This document shows positions 44,200 through 52,393 of a stretch of DNA of 64,000 bases, in pieces. The stretch's first letter is position 1; each line of letters begins with the position of its first letter. Source of the stretch: Eubacteriales bacterium (GTDB lineage: Bacteria > Bacillota > Clostridia > Oscillospirales > CAG-272); NCBI GenBank assembly GCA_045658965.1, contig JAZOVZ010000099.1, positions 832 through 64,831 on the forward strand, read 5' to 3'. A model generated the notes under the pieces. It saw only the letters and a program-made list of their open reading frames with translations. It was not told where the DNA came from and searched no databases. Position numbers and translations under genes: made by a program.

Positions 44200-46644
44200 A
44201 TGTCAGGATATATTGAAAAAGCCGAAAGCATGACCATGCCCGTGATCGCATTGCGCGGCATCGTCGCTTTTCCCGGTGCCACCATCAATTTTGACGTTGC
44301 CGAGGACAGCTTTGGCTCGGCACATGCGGCAAAGCTTGCCGCACAGGGCTCTTTGCCCGTGCTTTTGGTCACCTTGCGCGATCCGAGTGAGCCCGACAGC
44401 GGTGAACCCTCGCTGCAGAAGCTGCACCGCGTTGGCACAATTGCCAAAATCAGACAGCTTGTCAAGTCCGGTGACGGACAAAACCGCGCCATTGCCGTTG
44501 GTATGACGCGCGGTATGCTGAGTGCTCTGCACCCCACCGAGGACGGCACGTACGCTGAGGTCATGTGCAAATCCTACGTGCTCAAGGATAACGGCGGCAT
44601 TCGCGCCGAGGCGTATATGCGTCAGGCTCTCGCTGCCATGGAGCGCGTGGTACATCACCTGCCCGCATCGGGCGAGGAGATCATGCACTCCGCACGCGCG
44701 CTCAGAGACCCCGGCGTGCTTGCCGATATGATCGCTGCCAACGTGCTCATTCGTCCCGAGGATAAGCAGACCGTGCTGGAATGCTTTGATCCCATGATCC
44801 GTATTGAAACCGTTTGCATGATGCTGGATCACGAAGCGGAGATTTTGGAATGCGACGCCATGATCCACGGCCGCGTGCGCGAGCGCATTGCGCGCCATCA
44901 AAAGGAATACTACATGCGCGAGCAGATCCGTACCCTGCAAGAGGAGCTTGGCGAGGGTGACAACGAGATCTGGGAAAACAAAAAGCGTATTGCGCAGGCG
45001 CATCTGCCCGAAGAGGTGGAGAAAAAGCTGCTCAAGGAAAACGACCGCCTTTCCCGCACGCCGTTCGGCTCCGCAGAGGCAGGCGTGATTGAAAACTACC
45101 TGGACGTTTGCTTAAATCTGCCCTGGAACAAGACCACCAAGGACCGCGTCAGCGTTTCTGCAGCCAAAAAGGTGCTGGACGCAGACCACGACGGCATGGA
45201 GAAAGTCAAGGAGCGCATTCTGGAGTTCCTTGCCGTTAAGCAGCTCTCCCCCGAGCTGAAAAATCAGATCATTTGCTTGGTAGGCCCTCCCGGCGTGGGT
45301 AAGACCTCAATCGGTGCTTCCATCGCCCGCGCGCTCAAGCGCAAGTACGTGCGCGTGTCCCTGGGCGGTGTGCGTGACGAGGCGGATATCCGCGGTCACC
45401 GTAAGACCTACATCGGCTCTATGCCCGGCAGAATCATCGACGCCGTTTCCCGTGCGGGCGTGCGCAATCCGCTGATTTTGCTCGACGAGATCGACAAGCT
45501 GTCGATCAGCGCGCACGGTGATCCCTCCTCCGCGCTACTTGAGGTGCTGGACCCCGAGCAGAACAAATACTTCCGCGATCACTTCGTGGAGCTTCCCTTC
45601 GACCTTTCCGACTGTCTGTTCATTGCGACCGCCAACACGCTTGAGACCGTGCCGCGTCCTCTGATCGACCGTATGGAGATCATTGAGCTGGGGACCTACA
45701 CCAAGAGCGAAAAACGCAGCATTGCCAAGAATCACTTGATTCCCAAGCAGCTGACGCGCCACGGTCTTTCCAAGCGTGCGGTCAAGATCACCGATGCCGC
45801 CGTAGACGAGCTGATCGAATACTACACCCGCGAGGCAGGCGTGCGTAACTTGGAGCGTACCTTTGCCGAGCTTTGCCGCAAGGCAGCCAAGAAAATGGTG
45901 GAAACGGAATGCAAGAAGATCGTCATTGACGCGTCCGACGTTCAGGGCTACTTGGGCCCGCGTAAGCGTTTGCCCGATGCCATTTCCGCTATGGACGAGG
46001 TGGGCGAGGTCAACGGCCTTGCATGGACAGAGGTGGGCGGTGACGTTTTGCGCGTAGAGGTTGCCGTAACCGACGGCACGGGCAAGATCGAGCTGACAGG
46101 CTCGCTTGGCGACGTCATGAAGGAAAGCGCAAAGGCTGCGCTGACCTACACCCGCTCGGTTGCCGATAAATGGGGCATTCCCACCGATTTCTATACCAAA
46201 AAGGACATTCACGTGCACGTGCCCGAGGGCGCAGTACCCAAGGACGGCCCCAGCGCGGGCGTGACCATGGCGGCCGCTATGATCAGCGCACTTGCAAATA
46301 TTCCCGTCCGCCGCGACGTTGCCATGACGGGCGAGATCACGCTGCGCGGCAGAGTGCTTGCCATTGGCGGACTCAAAGAAAAATCGCTTGCCGCATACGC
46401 TGCAGGCGCAACCACGGTCTGCATTCCCGCAGATAACATGCGAGACATGCACGAGCTTGATCCCGAGGTCAAGGAGCACGTGCACTTTGTGCCCTGCTCC
46501 CGCATCGAGGACGTGCTCGCAGTCGCACTCGTGCAGCCCGAGGCAGTTAAGACTGCCCCCGTTTCCCATGACATTCCCGATTACATTCCCGTAGCAACCG
46601 GCACAAGCCGTGTTCCCGCTACGTCGTTTACAGAGGTAAAATAA
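44200..46644 (+). CDS. lon: Lon protease
   Basis: 'GPPGVGKTS', 'IRGHRKTYIGSMPG', 'PKDGPSAG', 'IGGLKEK'. Confidence 0.97.
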   Translation: MSGYIEKAESMTMPVIALRGIVAFPGATINFDVAEDSFGSAHAAKLAAQGSLPVLLVTLRDPSEPDSGEPSLQKLHRVGTIAKIRQLVKSGDGQNRAIAVGMTRGMLSALHPTEDGTYAEVMCKSYVLKDNGGIRAEAYMRQALAAMERVVHHLPASGEEIMHSARALRDPGVLADMIAANVLIRPEDKQTVLECFDPMIRIETVCMMLDHEAEILECDAMIHGRVRERIARHQKEYYMREQIRTLQEELGEGDNEIWENKKRIAQAHLPEEVEKKLLKENDRLSRTPFGSAEAGVIENYLDVCLNLPWNKTTKDRVSVSAAKKVLDADHDGMEKVKERILEFLAVKQLSPELKNQIICLVGPPGVGKTSIGASIARALKRKYVRVSLGGVRDEADIRGHRKTYIGSMPGRIIDAVSRAGVRNPLILLDEIDKLSISAHGDPSSALLEVLDPEQNKYFRDHFVELPFDLSDCLFIATANTLETVPRPLIDRMEIIELGTYTKSEKRSIAKNHLIPKQLTRHGLSKRAVKITDAAVDELIEYYTREAGVRNLERTFAELCRKAAKKMVETECKKIVIDASDVQGYLGPRKRLPDAISAMDEVGEVNGLAWTEVGGDVLRVEVAVTDGTGKIELTGSLGDVMKESAKAALTYTRSVADKWGIPTDFYTKKDIHVHVPEGAVPKDGPSAGVTMAAAMISALANIPVRRDVAMTGEITLRGRVLAIGGLKEKSLAAYAAGATTVCIPADNMRDMHELDPEVKEHVHFVPCSRIEDVLAVALVQPEAVKTAPVSHDIPDYIPVATGTSRVPATSFTEVK

Positions 46645-47258
46645 TGGCTTTTATGACACAGAACGCACAGCTGCAGATCAGCGCGGGACTTGCCAAGCAA
46701 TTCCCCACCAATCCCATTCCGCAGGTCGCCTTTTCGGGTCGCTCCAACGTGGGCAAGAGCTCTTTGCTCAACACCTTGCTTGGCAGAAAATCGCTTGCGC
46801 GCGTATCCAGCGCACCCGGCAAGACCATCACGGTCAACTTCTACAACGTAGATAAAAAGCTGTTCCTTGTCGACCTGCCCGGCTACGGCTTTGCAGCGCG
46901 CAATCCCGCGGACAAGGAAAAATGGAGCATGCTGACCGACGGATACTTTACCAACAATCCCAACGTGGATCTGCTCTGTCTGGTGCTTCAGCTGGTCGAT
47001 TCCCGCGTGGGGCTGACCCGCGACGATGAAATGATGGTGGATTTCCTCAACCAGAGCGGCATTCCCTACGCCATCGTTGCCACCAAGGTGGATAAGCTCA
47101 ACAAGACCGAGCGCGAAAAGAATCTTGCAGCCATTGCGTCTCACAAGCTCATCAAGCTCGGCACGCCTGTCATCCCCTTCTCCTCGCTCAAGGGCGAGGG
47201 CAAAAACGAGGTCTGGCGCGTGATTTGCTCGCATGCCGATCTGCCGACTCCCAACTGA
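46644..47258 (+). CDS. engB: Ribosome biogenesis GTPase YsxC/EngB
   Basis: 'GRSNVGKSSL', 'DLPGYG', 'TKVDKL'; follows lon. Confidence 0.95.
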   Translation: MAFMTQNAQLQISAGLAKQFPTNPIPQVAFSGRSNVGKSSLLNTLLGRKSLARVSSAPGKTITVNFYNVDKKLFLVDLPGYGFAARNPADKEKWSMLTDGYFTNNPNVDLLCLVLQLVDSRVGLTRDDEMMVDFLNQSGIPYAIVATKVDKLNKTEREKNLAAIASHKLIKLGTPVIPFSSLKGEGKNEVWRVICSHADLPTPN

Positions 47259-47260
47259 TA

Positions 47261-47419
47261 CCGTCAACGCAAGCGTTGGCGGCATCAGTTGGTGAAATAT
47301 TTCGCTGCGCGAAATGTGAAATGTTTTCCTTTGGCAAACGTGAAATTCGCACTTCGTGCGAGTGAAATATTGCGCTTACAGCGCAATGTTGTGGTAGAAA
47401 TTTGCCCCGGGCAAATTTC
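47261..47419 (+). repeat. Six-hairpin GTGAAAT structured element, copy 1
   Basis: Leading CCGTCAA hairpin, four (G)TGAAAT-linked hairpins and a final GAAATTTGCC/GGCAAATTTC hairpin; homologous to 50945-51101. Confidence 0.85.
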
Positions 47420-47456
47420 AATTTGATTGAATTTTTCGTTATTTCGAGGTATTACC

Positions 47457-48776
47457 ATGCTTCTTTATCCCCATTTTGATATCAACGACCAAGGGCATCT
47501 GACCGTGGGCGGTCTTGACACCGTGGCACTTGCAAAGCAGTACGGCACACCCGTCAATCTGCTTGACGAGAACGTCGTGCGCGCGCAGATGCGTCTGTAC
47601 CTGCGCTGTGCAAAGCAGTATTTTGGCGAGAACGCGCTGCCGCTGTTTGCATCCAAGGCACTTTGCTGTGCGGAGATCTACCGCATTGCAGCCGAGGAAG
47701 GCATGGGCATTGACTGCGTTTCCCCCGGTGAGCTTTACATTGCGGAGCGCGTGGGTTTCCCCGCTTCCCGCATTTATTTCCACGGCAATAACAAGACCGA
47801 CGCAGATATCGCGCAGGCACTTGACATGGGCGTGGGTACCTTTGTGGTGGATAACACGGAGGAGCTGGATTCTCTGAATGCACAAGCCCTGTCGCGCGGC
47901 ATGCGTGCGCGCATCCTTTTGCGCATCACGCCCGGTATCGATCCCCACACCCACAAGGCAATCTCTACGGGCGGCGTGGATACCAAGTTCGGCTCTCCCA
48001 TTCTGACGGGACAAGCCGAGACAATCGTGCTGCGCGCGCTTTCCTGCGAAGGTATTGACCTGCAGGGATTTCATTGCCACATCGGCTCGCAGATCTTTGA
48101 CGCAGAGCCCTTTATCGAGGCGGCACAGATCATGGTCGCGTTCATGGCGGATATGACGCACAAGCACGGCATTCGCCTGCACGAACTCAATCTGGGCGGC
48201 GGACTTGGCGTGCGCTATACCTCCGAGCAGCCCACGCTTGACGTCGACGGTACGATCAGAACCATTGCAGAGAGGGTCAAGGAGCTGTGCGTGCAAAACG
48301 GCATCGAAATGCCTCGCGTCATCCTTGAGCCCGGCAGATCCATCGTGGCTGCCGCAGGTGCTACGCTTTACACCGTCGGCTCGGTGAAAAAGATCCCCGG
48401 CTTTAAGAATTACGTATCGGTAGACGGCGGTATGCCCGACAACCCCAGATATGCTTTGTATCAATCCCCCTACACCGCGCTGATCGCAAACAAGGCGGAT
48501 CAGCCCGCAGACCTTTGCGCAACCGTGGCGGGCAGATGCTGCGAATCGGGCGACCTCTTGGGCGAGGGCATGATGCTGCAGACCCCCGTGCGCGGTGATA
48601 TTCTCGCCATGCTGGTCACGGGTGCATATCAGCATTCCATGGCGTCCAACTATAACAAGATCCCCCGTCCCCCACTGGTCATGATCAAGGACGGTACCTC
48701 GCGCGTGGTCGTGCGCCGCGAGACCTATGAGGATCTGCTCCTGTATGACGTGACCGATCCTGTCTTTACGAGGTGA
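47457..48776 (+). CDS. lysA: Diaminopimelate decarboxylase
   Basis: 'FASKA' PLP lysine, 'FHGNNK', 'HCHIGSQIF', 'LGGG', 'EPGRSI', 'CESGD', 'GAY..SMASNYN'. Confidence 0.95.
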   Translation: MLLYPHFDINDQGHLTVGGLDTVALAKQYGTPVNLLDENVVRAQMRLYLRCAKQYFGENALPLFASKALCCAEIYRIAAEEGMGIDCVSPGELYIAERVGFPASRIYFHGNNKTDADIAQALDMGVGTFVVDNTEELDSLNAQALSRGMRARILLRITPGIDPHTHKAISTGGVDTKFGSPILTGQAETIVLRALSCEGIDLQGFHCHIGSQIFDAEPFIEAAQIMVAFMADMTHKHGIRLHELNLGGGLGVRYTSEQPTLDVDGTIRTIAERVKELCVQNGIEMPRVILEPGRSIVAAAGATLYTVGSVKKIPGFKNYVSVDGGMPDNPRYALYQSPYTALIANKADQPADLCATVAGRCCESGDLLGEGMMLQTPVRGDILAMLVTGAYQHSMASNYNKIPRPPLVMIKDGTSRVVVRRETYEDLLLYDVTDPVFTR

Positions 48777-48780
48777 TATT

Positions 48781-49491
48781 ATGCTTCTTACACTGCTTTC
48801 CGAGGGCTTTAGCCGAGACGCGCTGATCTCGGTGCTGCTCTCGCTTCCCGTCATCGTGCTTTCCCTTTGCTTGCACGAAACGGCACACGGCTGGGTGGCT
48901 TACAAGTTAGGCGACCCGACCGCCCGCAATTTGGGCAGACTGACGCTCAATCCGATCAAGCACCTTGACCCCATGGGCTTCCTTTTCATGCTGCTGTTCG
49001 GCATCGGTTGGGCAAAGCCCGTGCCCATCAACACGCGCAACTTCAAAAACCCGCGCGTTGGCATGGCACTTTCGGGCATTGCAGGCCCCATTTCCAACCT
49101 GCTGCTTGGTCTGCTTGGCATGGTTTTGTCCGTGGCGACGCTGGTTATCTGCTTCCTTGCGGGCATTGATCCGAACGCAAACATCTGGATCACGGTCATG
49201 CTGCTGTTTTTTGACGTGCTTGCATTTCTCAACGTTGCGCTGGCGGTATTCAATCTCATCCCCGTGCCGCCCTTTGACGGCTCGCGCTTTGCGTACGTGT
49301 TCCTGCCCACCAAGTGGTATTTCAAGGTCATGCAATACGAGCGTTTTACCGGTATTGCCATCATGATCCTCATCTTCATTCTCTCCCGCATAGGACTCAA
49401 TCCCATCTCCATCGTGGTGTCTTTCATTTTGAACAACACCATGGATCTGCTTTTGCTGATTGCAAACACCATTCTCAATCTGATTCTTTGA
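48781..49491 (+). CDS. Site-2 protease (M50 family)
   Basis: HExxH (HETAH), 'GDPT', 'GWAKPV', 'FNLIPVPPFDG'. Confidence 0.93.
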   Translation: MLLTLLSEGFSRDALISVLLSLPVIVLSLCLHETAHGWVAYKLGDPTARNLGRLTLNPIKHLDPMGFLFMLLFGIGWAKPVPINTRNFKNPRVGMALSGIAGPISNLLLGLLGMVLSVATLVICFLAGIDPNANIWITVMLLFFDVLAFLNVALAVFNLIPVPPFDGSRFAYVFLPTKWYFKVMQYERFTGIAIMILIFILSRIGLNPISIVVSFILNNTMDLLLLIANTILNLIL

Positions 49492-49506
49492 TAACGGCGG
49501 TATACT

Positions 49507-50301
49507 ATGGCTGAATTAAAGTATAAAATTGAATCCTTCGACTTTGACGGTCCGCTGGATCTGCTTTTGACCCTGATACAGAAAAACAAGGTCAGCATCC
49601 AGGATATTCCCATCGCGCTGATCTGCGACCAGTATCTTGCGTACATTTCGCAGGCGCAAAAGCTGGATCTTGAGGTCGCGTCCGAATTTTTGGTCATGGC
49701 AAGTGAGCTGATTTTGATCAAGACCAAAATGCTTTTGCCGCGTGACGAAAAATCCGACGAAAAGGACCCCCGTGCCGAGCTGGCTGACGCGCTGCTCAAA
49801 TACCAGCAGGCAAAGGAGGGCGCGGCAAAGCTCAAGGCAAGATATGAAAAATACGTGGGGCGTATGGTCAAGGACACCGATGAAATTTCGATAGACAAGA
49901 CCTTTGTGGACGACCAGCAGGTCACCTCTCTTTGTGCCGCGGTGCGCCGCATCATCGCCTATAACGAGGCAAACGACGGCAAGGAAAAGGTGGTCTTCTC
50001 CCCCATGATCTCCAAGCCCATCGTGCCGGTCGAAGCCAAGATCGTGGGCATTTTGCACCGCATGAAAAAGAAGGAATGGACGCAAATGGAGGAGCTGCTC
50101 TCCGACTCGGTCTCTCATGCCGACATGATCGCCATATTCCTTGGCGTTTTAGAGCTTCTCAAGGTGCGTGACATTTTGCTTGACGACGAGGACGCCAACG
50201 AGCACTCGCTCTACACGTCGGACGCAAAGCTGCGCATCAATCCCATTCCCGCGGACCAAAGACAACCCCAAAAACAAGACAGTGAGGTAGCACAGGTATG
50301 A
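49507..50301 (+). CDS. scpA: Segregation/condensation protein A
   Basis: 'FDGPLDLLL', 'EFLVMASEL..IKTKMLLP', 'FLGVLEL'. Confidence 0.95.
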   Translation: MAELKYKIESFDFDGPLDLLLTLIQKNKVSIQDIPIALICDQYLAYISQAQKLDLEVASEFLVMASELILIKTKMLLPRDEKSDEKDPRAELADALLKYQQAKEGAAKLKARYEKYVGRMVKDTDEISIDKTFVDDQQVTSLCAAVRRIIAYNEANDGKEKVVFSPMISKPIVPVEAKIVGILHRMKKKEWTQMEELLSDSVSHADMIAIFLGVLELLKVRDILLDDEDANEHSLYTSDAKLRINPIPADQRQPQKQDSEVAQV

Positions 50302-50939
50302 CAGAACAGCAAATGCCCACCATTTCCGATATCGGTGAAGCCATTGAGGCGATCCTTTTCGCCGCAGGGTATCCCGTTAAATACGACAAGCTTGCAGAGG
50401 TACTGGGACTTTCCGCGCCCGACGTCCGTCTGCTTTGCGAGCACATGGCAACAGAATACGAAAAAGCCGGCAGAGGCATTATGATGCTGTGCCTGCCCGA
50501 GACCTGCCAGCTGACCACAAAGGAGCAGTATATGCCCTACATCCGCGAAGCCCTTGGCATCAAGAGAGGCGGCAACCTCTCGGCATCCTCACTTGAGGTG
50601 CTTGCCATCGTGGCTTACAACCAGCCCGTGACCCGCGCTTACGTGGACGCGGTGCGCGGCGTGGACTCTTCTTACGCGGTCGGCTCTCTGCTCGACAAAA
50701 ATCTGATCGAGGCTTGCGGCAGAATGGACGCGCCCGGTCGCCCCATGCTGTACGTGACCACCGATAAATTCTTGCGCGTGTTCGGTCTGAATTCGCTTTC
50801 CGAGCTGCCCGAGACCGAGGCTCTGAGCATTGCCGCTGCGCAAGCCGAGCAGGTGGAGATGGAGATCGATACCCCTGCCGAGGAGGCTGTGCCCGAGGGC
50901 GAATACACCGAGGTCGCAGAGGACGACAGCCGCGCCTGA
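50298..50939 (+). CDS. scpB: Segregation/condensation protein B
   Basis: 'IEAILFAAG', 'LEVLAIVAYNQPVTRA', 'PGRP..Y.TT..FL..FGL'. Confidence 0.95.
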   Translation: MTEQQMPTISDIGEAIEAILFAAGYPVKYDKLAEVLGLSAPDVRLLCEHMATEYEKAGRGIMMLCLPETCQLTTKEQYMPYIREALGIKRGGNLSASSLEVLAIVAYNQPVTRAYVDAVRGVDSSYAVGSLLDKNLIEACGRMDAPGRPMLYVTTDKFLRVFGLNSLSELPETEALSIAAAQAEQVEMEIDTPAEEAVPEGEYTEVAEDDSRA

Positions 50940-50944
50940 GCAAC

Positions 50945-51101
50945 GCCGTCAAAGAACATTTGACGGCATTGCAGTGAAATATTTTGCCACAGGCAAAATG
51001 TGAAATTTTTGCTCTGCAAAAATGAAATTCGCGCTGTGCGCGAGTGAAATATTCCGCAAATGCGGAATGTTGAGGTAGAAATTTGCCGGATGGCAAATTT
51101 C
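50945..51101 (+). repeat. Six-hairpin GTGAAAT structured element, copy 2
   Basis: Same architecture as 47261-47419 with compensatory stem substitutions. Confidence 0.85.
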
Positions 51102-51126
51102 CGATTTTTCCGGAAAGGAGGCTGCC

Positions 51127-51912
51127 ATGCCACTCGCACTCAAAATCGTGCTGATCGTAGCAGCGGCAATTGCCGTGCTCACGGTTGCGCTTGTGCTTGC
51201 GTTGCTTGCCTTGCGCGTCAAGATCAAGATCGGCTATCGCGACACGTTATTTTTCAAGCTGTACGTGGGCGGCGTCAAGGTAGCCACCATTCCCAAGCCC
51301 CCCAAAAAGCTGCGCAGATTGCGCACCTACACCAAGAAAAAAGCCATGCGTGCTGCCGCAAAGTATGCACGGCATGCCGAGGATTACCTCGAAATGGTGC
51401 GTCAGCATGCGCTTTACCGCGCGCTGATGCAAAAATACGCGCAAAGCAAGGCGCAAAAGAAAAAGCCCGCGCCCTCGACGGACGCAAAGCCCAAAGAAAA
51501 GAAACCGGAAAGCCATTTGGACGTGGAAGTGCTTTTGCGCATGATCAGCGAGCTGATCGAAGCCTTTTTCGAGGGCACGCGCAAGGGTCTGCACGTGCAC
51601 GTGTGCCGCTTGCACGTAGACGTGGTCGGCAAGGACGCTGCCGCGACCGCGCTGCTCTGTGGCTGTTTATGGGCAGCCGTGACACAGCTGCTTGCCGTCA
51701 TTGACGCACACGCCGTGCTGCGCGTGCGCAAGACGGACGTAGTCATTACGCCCGATTATACGGGCGACAAGACCCGCACCGATTTCTCCCTGATCGTATC
51801 CTTCAGCGTATTCCGTACGCTGCACACGCTGCTCTCTCTCATTCCCGTTGTCCTCAGGCATAAGGACACCCTGATGAAAAAGGCAGCTGCTCCCACACCC
51901 GCAAAACAATGA
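51127..51912 (+). CDS. DUF2953/YtfI-like membrane protein
   Basis: N-terminal TM, 'VGKDAAATALLCG', 'ITPDY'; lies upstream of ytfJ/gerW. Confidence 0.75.
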   Translation: MPLALKIVLIVAAAIAVLTVALVLALLALRVKIKIGYRDTLFFKLYVGGVKVATIPKPPKKLRRLRTYTKKKAMRAAAKYARHAEDYLEMVRQHALYRALMQKYAQSKAQKKKPAPSTDAKPKEKKPESHLDVEVLLRMISELIEAFFEGTRKGLHVHVCRLHVDVVGKDAAATALLCGCLWAAVTQLLAVIDAHAVLRVRKTDVVITPDYTGDKTRTDFSLIVSFSVFRTLHTLLSLIPVVLRHKDTLMKKAAAPTPAKQ

Positions 51913-51940
51913 ATTTTCATATATGAAAGGAACTCTACGT

Positions 51941-52393
51941 ATGTCTGAGAACAACAAGATCCAAGAAATCATCAAGGAGTCGCTTGAAAACATCCGCTCT
52001 ATCATTGACGCAAACACCGTCATCGGCACTCCTATGGAGACCTCCAACGGCGTGACCATCATTCCCGTATCCAAGATCGCTATGGGCTTTGCTTCGGGCG
52101 GCTTGGACTTTGACGGCAAAAAGGAAGCTTCCGCCAAGAACTTCGGCGGTGGCGGCGGCACGGGTCTTTCTGTACAGCCCGTCGGCTTTTTGGTCATCTC
52201 CCATGAGGGTCGCGTTGAAATGATCAACGTCGGTCAGAAGACGCCCAAGGACACCATCGAGCAGGTTGCGGACCTTCTGGAGCGCACCCCCGATATCGTG
52301 TACCGCCTCAAGGTCATCTTCGACAAGTTCAACGAAATGAAAAAGGACGGCGAGGTACAGCCCGCGCTGGAATCCGAAAACAAGGACGAATAA
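51941..52393 (+). CDS. gerW: Sporulation/germination protein YtfJ (GerW)
   Basis: 'DANTVIGTP', 'IIPVSKIAMGFASGG', 'FGGGGGTG.SVQPVGFLV'. Confidence 0.92.
   Translation: MSENNKIQEIIKESLENIRSIIDANTVIGTPMETSNGVTIIPVSKIAMGFASGGLDFDGKKEASAKNFGGGGGTGLSVQPVGFLVISHEGRVEMINVGQKTPKDTIEQVADLLERTPDIVYRLKVIFDKFNEMKKDGEVQPALESENKDE

Follow-up and report, generated by a model that had tools for sequence, protein, structure and literature searches.

Two six-hairpin elements in an Oscillospirales operon belong to the Gut-1 RNA family and to a dispersed repeat tied to 23S_rRNA_IVP genes

Why should a row of housekeeping genes carry the same six-hairpin structure twice? The question arises in a stretch of 64,000 nt from an Eubacteriales bacterium (Oscillospirales, CAG-272; assembly GCA_045658965.1, contig JAZOVZ010000099.1, positions 832 to 64,831 of the forward strand), referred to here as the window. 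An initial annotation of this sequence described an element with GTGAAAT linkers in duplicate inside an operon, noted compensatory changes across its stems, and proposed that its structure is under selection. The sequence at both sites is as described: copy A (47251–47419), between engB and lysA, and copy B (50940–51101), between scpB and ytfI, both consist of six hairpins with GTGAAAT linkers. The reading that we favor, with a probability of about 60%, is that the operon carries two orphan copies of a repeat, the Gut-1 "bead array", that is linked to 23S_rRNA_IVP (hereafter IVP) genes; that they are passengers in the operon; that their palindromes are kept at the DNA level; and that the IVP protein recognizes the linker.

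A scan of the whole window against Rfam gave two matches over the gathering score of 50, both to RF01706 (Gut-1 RNA) and both covering model positions 1–77 of 77, at 47290–47373 (52.6 bits) and 50972–51055 (52.2 bits). Because both copies match a described family above its gathering score, the novelty claimed for the element by the initial annotation cannot be upheld. The distinguishing trait of Gut-1, three hairpins split by UGAAAU with covarying stems, is found in both copies. The Rfam model corresponds to three hairpins in the middle of the element and covers neither the first hairpin, nor the fourth unit, nor the terminal hairpin. Both elements are members of the Gut-1 family, of a full-length six-hairpin subtype.

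Gut-1 has been in Rfam since 2010 as a small RNA (sRNA) of unknown function from unknown human-gut organisms, with the type "Gene; sRNA". The sections consulted of the original description (Weinberg et al. 2010, Genome Biol 11:R31; PMC2864571) present it as "human gut only", derived from 43 sequences, certainly an RNA, probably neither cis-regulatory nor a riboswitch, and likely a stand-alone noncoding RNA. Apart from that paper, the only full-text literature found on Gut-1 or RF01706 is a structure-prediction benchmark from 2026 in which the family serves as an example. The copies studied here share with the published family the three short UGAAAU-joined hairpins and the covarying stems, but they form a high-copy repeat behind stop codons instead of a stand-alone human-gut RNA, and their hosts are uncultured Oscillospiraceae/Eubacteriales with close relatives from ruminant and other animal guts. 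The analysis places Gut-1 in Oscillospiraceae-like gut Clostridia. The element was already catalogued; the evidence on its nature and on the protein that accompanies it goes beyond what is in print.

The abundance of the element was assessed in the assembly of the source genome (2.73 Mb, 110 contigs, 96% complete). At E ≤ 1e-3, RF01706 has at least 86 matches among the 150 of 373 candidates that were scored, 36 of them over the gathering score. Chains of at least two units, each consisting of a TGA(A/T)A linker and a hairpin, occur 65 times in the genome and not once in a shuffled genome, and single linker-hairpin units occur 97 times compared to 26 in the shuffled genome. When the linker sequence was disregarded and arrays were defined as at least three perfect hairpins in a row (stem of at least 5, loop of 3–6, linkers of 3–10 nt), 116 arrays were found compared to 6 in the shuffled genome; they span 0.38% of the genome, and for 14 of the 116 a contig end is no more than 400 nt away. 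The linkers fall into the classes GTGAAAT, GTGATAT, ATGAAAT, ATGATG/CATCAT, and CATCGT. Only the UGAAAU class is represented in Rfam, as arrays of the ATGATG, GTGATG, and CATCGTT classes had no Rfam match at E ≤ 0.01.

A motif search located 20 copies of the window subtype, which has four units and a terminal hairpin. From these a covariance model (R1, 147 positions) was constructed, and its search of the genome yielded 82 matches. The 22 that score at least 108 bits, which put the number of full-length copies at about 22, are the 20 training rows and two tandem copies at contig ends. In this genome, the Gut-1 family takes the form of a modular repeat that is present in many copies, turns over fast, and resides at gene 3′ flanks. 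Arrays of this kind cause breaks in short-read assemblies, and they can be mistaken for regulatory RNAs of whatever operon happens to host them.

Three observations on individual arrays may be added. Contigs C9 (positions 1–400) and C75 (positions 1–240; locus L121) end in head-to-tail copies of the window type, with inner copies whose terminal hairpin differs; the assembly was probably interrupted there by the repeat. An array of 17 perfect mini-hairpins with CATCAT/CATCGT linkers at C93:30089–30457 (L239:290–658) adjoins a copy of the GTGAAAT type; this linker class is about as common in the genome as GTGAAAT (51 linkers) and has no Rfam match at E ≤ 0.01. A different repeat, a near-match to the 13-base search pattern, is present in at least six near-identical copies (C106:41700–42800, which is L240, and others on C8, C31, C36, C60, and C106), likewise with no Rfam match at E ≤ 0.01.

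A pointer to a partner of the repeat came from the genes that it adjoins. The initial annotation had suggested looking for a gene family consistently flanked by the element, and 23S_rRNA_IVP (PF05635), whose product is a four-helix-bundle protein of 115–130 residues, is such a family. The source genome contains six PF05635 genes (E 4e-23 to 8e-29), and all six have a mirrored array, the fullest form of the repeat, directly upstream; it comprises a forward half, a centre, and a reverse half, the latter extending to the ribosome-binding site or to a TTGACT/TTGAAA-17-TATAAT box, with four to five linkers per half-array. By the strict array rule, an array lies within 200 nt upstream of five of the six IVP genes compared with 41 of 2044 genes overall (binomial 2e-8), and the sixth IVP gene has RF01706 matches upstream. 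The linker words ahead of the IVP genes, namely GTGAAAT (C56), ATGAAAT (C27, C5, and C62), GTGATG (C29), and CATCGTT/ATGATG (C53), are the main dispersed linker classes of the genome. Three of the IVP cassettes (L115, L116, and L117, on C5, C53, and C56) stand directly after a tRNA gene and its terminator, and each is followed by a different small open reading frame, one of which overlaps the IVP stop codon; these cassettes look like small islets.

The association extends to other genomes. Among 20 IVP genes in five genomes of five other families, 10 have at least three short linkers between perfect hairpins upstream, and eight more (L137, L138, L139, L143, L145, L147, L151, and L156) show by eye tandem or mirrored 7–8-mers with imperfect hairpins or none. 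RF01706 matches are present in 31 of 41 relatives, including all 15 of the genus. When 150 genomes of the order, sampled evenly and each at least 90% complete, were searched, RF01706 was found in 66 and PF05635 in 72; 58 genomes have both, 8 only Gut-1, 14 only IVP, and 70 neither (odds ratio 36). Many of the best Gut-1 matches lie a few hundred bases from an IVP match on the same contig. The repeat is physically and phylogenetically tied to IVP genes.

The gene that adjoins the arrays is of the same family, PF05635, as Avd of diversity-generating retroelements and the 23S rRNA intervening-sequence proteins; in the part consulted, PMC10053308 equates PF05635 with Avd. In contrast to Avd, the gene is found here in a genome with no reverse transcriptase: PF00078 had no match in the 96% complete assembly, hence the IVP genes are not part of a diversity-generating retroelement. 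According to the sections consulted of PMC3936711, IVP genes occur dispersed within cas loci, and a GxxRxxxSxxxNxxE motif is described. Hairpin arrays beside IVP or Avd genes are not described in the consulted parts of these two papers or in the literature searched. The nearest solved structure to the IVP protein is 2RLD, an uncharacterized protein with five chains in the entry. The thought that a pentameric protein might be matched by five linkers, suggested by these chains and by the four to five linkers of a half-array, was set aside and carries no weight here. The repeat is thus linked to an Avd-like gene family that has no known role outside retroelements.

Both sites were compared with those of close relatives, which are uncultured Oscillospiraceae/Eubacteriales and were mostly sampled from the guts of ruminants and other animals. 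The engB-lysA site was compared in 12 relatives (L031–L042) with EngB identity of at least 89% and sequence reaching the spacer; L043 and L044, in which the contig breaks off within engB, are not part of this set, nor are loci with EngB identity under 89%, apart from a few such as L049 that were also considered. The scpB-ytfI site was compared in 15 relatives with ScpB identity of at least 83%, leaving out L173 (contig end) and loci below 59% identity. The initial annotation had proposed a search for empty sites, and these were found at both places. At engB-lysA, 11 of the 12 relatives are filled; the exception, L040, has an empty spacer of 26 nt, and the site is likewise empty in L049, a more distant relative (72%). 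At scpB-ytfI only three of the 15 are filled (L159, L169, and L171), the other 12 having spacers of 30–45 nt; L160 is empty at this site, yet the same contig carries L031 with a filled engB site. As the scpB-ytfI copy is absent from 12 of 15 close relatives, the elements cannot be regarded as characteristic of this operon.

The filled sites vary as well. Alleles at engB-lysA have one unit (L038), four (for example L031, L032, and L034), or five (L041); the linker is GTGATAT in L039 and L042 and degenerate in L033 and L036, and the stems differ despite EngB identities of 90–97%. The combination of presence/absence and unit-number variation indicates that the copies are dispensable for the operon and turn over fast by whole units. 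Neither engB-lysA nor scpB-ytfI shows a visible target-site duplication or terminal inverted repeat; the empty alleles there are 4–17% diverged and have differing spacers. The end of ScpB (50928–50939) reads R-A-stop in the window allele and R-A-E-I/V-stop in the empty alleles (L160–L165) and in the filled L169, which indicates that two codons at the boundary to the element have been lost in the window lineage. Of the three options offered by the initial annotation (a protein-binding RNA scaffold, an mRNA processing or stability element, and a non-autonomous mobile element favoring intercistronic sites), the last comes closest to what was found, considering the many copies, their location behind stop codons, and the polymorphism of the sites.

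A metatranscriptome contig (run X1) joins position 50927 to position 51111 through 36 other letters, which are the empty scpB-ytfI spacer of L160; this contig shows only that a relative with the empty allele was present in the sample. The same run (Logan contigs, share 0.05) consists mostly of contigs less than 95% alike; its coverage is concentrated on the hairpin units, as it would be for any repeated sequence.

The compensatory changes reported for the two copies were confirmed and extended. All four stem pairs listed by the initial annotation differ on both arms between copies A and B, and in the 20 full-length copies 97.1% of 853 cells form standard pairs. Changes on both sides affect 23 of the 43 pairs, in 61 cells, whereas one-sided changes inside stems are almost absent. 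None of 500 shuffles reached any of these measures, and controls with the partners slid by 1–3 columns had 31.6–55.8% of cells paired and 2–9 two-sided pairs. Among 1395 stem pairs in 220 units of the genome, only 17 are not Watson–Crick, including 1 G.T and 3 A.C. The balance of G.U and A.C mismatches was considered as an indicator of the strand on which the structure acts and was rejected because these mismatches are too few (1 versus 3). The units have stems of 5–9 bp, loops of 3 nt (124 units) or 4 nt (65 units) closed mostly by a C–G pair, and a modal length of 22 nt. The covariation is real but unusual in character, consisting of near-perfect mini-palindromes unlike slowly drifting RNA helices, and the paired changes would be accounted for just as well by a process acting on DNA that preserves perfect palindromes. 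Of the proposal that structure is under selection in RNA or single-stranded DNA, the part that stands is that structure is kept through paired changes; the case for selection on RNA is weakened by the single G.T among 1395 pairs, by the two-sided changes, and by mirrored copies located behind terminators or in front of promoters.

Under the reading favored here, the repeat is a dispersed, non-coding sequence made of very short perfect hairpins and one constant linker word, in this case GTGAAAT, closed in the window subtype by a conserved terminal hairpin. The copies in the operon would be co-transcribed passengers that fold into a row of hairpins, and their local effect is probably modest at most, perhaps protection of the upstream 3′ end or weak termination, and not that of a regulator dedicated to the operon. 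A templated process at the DNA level could account for the perfect palindromes and the paired changes at least as much as selection on RNA does; such a process may involve template switching or correction within quasi-palindromes together with exchange between arrays. The partner acting in trans would be the IVP protein, which would recognize the linker word repeated along the array, and every paralogue would have a linker class of its own. No transposase is implicated in the spread of the arrays.

A more far-reaching version of this model, which we put forward tentatively and consider possible but doubtful, is a two-part system in which Gut-1 and its uncatalogued sister arrays form the nucleic-acid half and the Avd-like IVP protein the other half. 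Each IVP paralogue would read its own linker word of 5–7 nt, of which four to five repeats would be displayed between mini-hairpins. The master or operator copy would then be the mirrored array at the IVP gene, and the hundred-odd orphan arrays would be its offspring, spread by template switching at hairpins and with no transposase. If true, this would at once provide a function for a widespread orphan protein family and for an orphan Rfam motif.

Gene calls were made with a simple caller of our own (2044 genes, 84% coding). Only 3 of the 65 arrays overlap a gene call by more than 20 nt. Of the 47 solo arrays, 12 lie in convergent and 3 in divergent spacers (p = 0.035), compared with 213 convergent and 225 divergent spacers genome-wide, and among 32 solo arrays with a co-oriented upstream gene, 22 begin no more than 45 nt from its stop codon and five overlap it. 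The spacer and stop-codon counts indicate that the arrays favor gene 3′ flanks and lean toward the sense orientation. There is no strand bias with respect to GC skew, the GTGAAAT strand being the G-rich strand in 28 cases and the C-rich strand in 23, although this is a weak proxy because only 61% of genes follow the skew.

Several of our results weigh against the passenger model. Strand bias relative to transcription, a test raised in the initial annotation, shows a lean to co-orientation: solo arrays in tandem spacers (of which there are 807 genome-wide) are co-oriented in 15 cases and opposed in 6 (p = 0.078), and by our reading the window subtype has about 10 co-oriented copies and 2 opposed. 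A pure DNA passenger would not need such a bias, which for this reason counts against the model, with the limitation that all context counts rest on the crude gene caller. Of 184 units, 140 have T..G and 42 have T..A as the pair next to the stem; as T..G can pair only on the GTGAAAT strand, that strand folds better, and both the flanking pair and the better fold of the sense strand favor a role of the RNA or of the sense strand. With regard to the IVP link, eight of the 150 genomes are Gut-1-positive with no IVP match, and the co-occurrence was counted over related, non-independent genomes with a model, RF01706, that detects one linker class only.

The orientation bias and the sense-strand pairs lend themselves to the main rival, which we nevertheless consider unlikely: a selected cis-acting mRNA element whose row of hairpins would be retained at each site for stabilizing the 3′ end of the upstream cistron, for exposing single-stranded UGAAAU linkers to endonucleases, or for limiting read-through at the terminal hairpin. 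An mRNA element could account for the arrays starting at or just past stop codons with biased orientation, for the lack of bias with the G-rich strand, and for U.G or U–A closing pairs that form only on the sense strand (182 of 184). It agrees also with the fold of copy A, for which the GTGAAAT strand has a predicted energy of –84.1 kcal/mol compared to –72.7 kcal/mol for its complement, a difference of 11 kcal/mol, and with covariation above all shuffled and slid controls. The terminal hairpins of both copies, with 10 bp, 4 G–C pairs, and T-rich tails, pass a simple terminator scan, and genes start 40–60 nt later. On the other hand, the element is dispensable and polymorphic at both sites among relatives whose flanking proteins are 83–97% identical, with the number of units ranging from 0 to 5 at one site. 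The near absence of G.U from the inner stems also counts against this explanation, and little transcription is expected of the mirrored copies behind tRNA terminators and upstream of promoter-like TTGACT/TTGAAA-17-TATAAT boxes.

It is less probable still that the arrays act as DNA, serving as protein-binding or cruciform sites such as IVP operators or nucleoid sites, with hairpins that only space or expose the linkers. The mirrored arrays just upstream of IVP promoters would fit this role, as would the tandem 7–8-mers without hairpins that some IVP genes elsewhere have at the same place, and so would near-perfect palindromes with 3–4-nt centres and a modal unit of 22 nt, or approximately two helical turns. 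However, the T..G flanking pair becomes a C.A mismatch on the other strand, the orientation relative to the upstream gene is biased, and the copies dispersed within operons offer no obvious target for a DNA operator.

Other bacterial repeats provide a further comparison. The REP/BIME repeats of enterobacteria are extragenic palindromic units that form mosaic arrays behind genes, in both orientations and in high copy number, and the RAYT gene is itself flanked by repeats. The arrays described here are likewise clustered extragenic palindromic units, mostly at gene 3′ ends and with one associated protein gene, but their units are much shorter (stems of 5–9 bp) and the conserved part is the linker and not the stem. 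The BOX elements of Streptococcus pneumoniae are modular intergenic repeats with variable internal units between fixed ends that are predicted to fold when transcribed; compared by description only, the modular plan is alike, whereas BOX modules are longer and are not perfect mini-palindromes. Background on REP/BIME and RAYT is given in PMC5581495. The associated gene here encodes a PF05635 four-helix bundle in place of a Y1 transposase, and no Y1 gene is flanked by arrays. We accordingly give little credence to a REP/MITE-type element moved by a transposase, for example a RAYT-like Y1 enzyme acting on single-stranded DNA hairpins, even though high copy number, extragenic position, presence/absence polymorphism, and hairpin units all agree with it. 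Of the two PF01797 matches in the genome, the one on C37 has no array on its contig and the other, a fragment on C80, is more than 20 kb from the nearest array; comparison of filled and empty sites reveals no terminal inverted repeats or target-site duplication, the arrays vary by whole units instead of being fixed-length copies, and there is no strand bias relative to GC skew. Finally, a free-standing small RNA gene, as implied by the Rfam type and by the class of "noncoding RNAs unaffiliated with mRNAs" of Weinberg et al. (in the portion of PMC2864571 consulted, Table 1 gives RNA "Y" and cis-regulatory "n"), is very improbable here, as both copies are intercistronic in a co-oriented gene row right behind stop codons, no sigma-70-like promoter was found by a scan of the + strand from 46500 to 52000, and the element occurs in dozens to more than 100 copies per genome and in both orientations back to back.

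The two copies in the operon, both on the + strand, follow a common plan: a first hairpin, four linker-hairpin units, a junction, and a terminal hairpin. Aligned with their flanks included, they have a mean column identity of 81%. Both lie 0–5 nt past a stop codon and 10–40 nt before the next ribosome-binding site. In copy A, the first hairpin (47251–47292) is composite, with an outer stem CCAACTGAT/ATCAGTTGG and an inner hairpin CCGTCAACGC-AA-GCGTTGGCGG. The engB stop codon TGA (47256–47258) lies inside the outer stem, and in the orthologues the outer arm is built with the last engB codons (CCCAAC TGA C GTTGGG). The four GTGAAAT units (47292–47387), which contain the RF01706 match and to which the covariation analysis of 20 copies applies, have linkers starting at 47292, 47316, 47340, and 47362 and hairpins of 6–7 bp at 47299–47315, 47323–47339, 47347–47361, and 47369–47387, with the stems ATTTCGC, GTTTTCC (with one T.C mismatch), TCGCAC, and ATTGCGC. 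The element closes at 47388–47419 with the junction GTTGTGGTA and the terminal hairpin GAAATTTGCC-CCG-GGCAAATTTC (47397–47419) with its T-rich tail; this part, conserved in the 20 copies, is included in model R1 and lies outside the Rfam model.

Copy B begins with a hairpin at 50940–50972, one base past the scpB stop codon (50937–50939), in which a GCAA...TTGC outer stem encloses GCCGTCAAA-GAACA-TTTGACGGC; its 3′ arm, CATTGCAG, recurs in other copies of the genome. The four units (50974–51068), again matching RF01706, have linkers starting at 50974, 51000, 51022 (here ATGAAAT), and 51044, hairpins at 50981–50999, 51007–51021, 51029–51043, and 51051–51068, and the stems ATTTTGCC, TTTTGC, TCGCGC, and ATTCCGC. 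They are followed at 51069–51101 by the junction GTTGAGGTA and the terminal hairpin GAAATTTGCC-GGAT-GGCAAATTTC, which carries the terminator-like flag (51078–51101) and ends 10 nt ahead of the ribosome-binding site of the DUF2953 gene. An outward promoter in the terminal part (TTGCC-17-TATTGT, by eye) was considered and dropped, given that the + strand scan was empty and that the box lies only 5–10 nt from the ribosome-binding site.

Both copies are predicted to fold far more stably than shuffled sequences. The RNA fold of copy B has an energy of –77.6 kcal/mol (z = –8.79; none of 200 shuffles as stable), and its minimum-energy structure is exactly the six hairpins. For copy A (z = –9.04; again none of 200 shuffles as stable), the minimum-energy fold nests hairpins 2–4 differently, and the second unit has the T.C mismatch. 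In that unit (47323–47339) the 5′ arm GTTTTCC faces the 3′ arm GGCAAAC, and the orthologues L031, L032, and L034 have a perfect GTTTGCC; judged from this comparison, the mismatch looks like a recent single change, so far uncorrected.

The gene names given by the initial annotation agree with the Pfam matches. Copy A follows the gene for an EngB-type GTPase (46644–47258, + strand; PF01926, MMR_HSR1, E 4.3e-20) and copy B the ScpB gene (50298–50939, + strand; PF04079, E 5.4e-50), and Pfam matches on the neighbors identify Lon, the EngB-type GTPase, an Orn/DAP decarboxylase (LysA-like), an M50 peptidase, ScpA, ScpB, and a DUF2953 protein.

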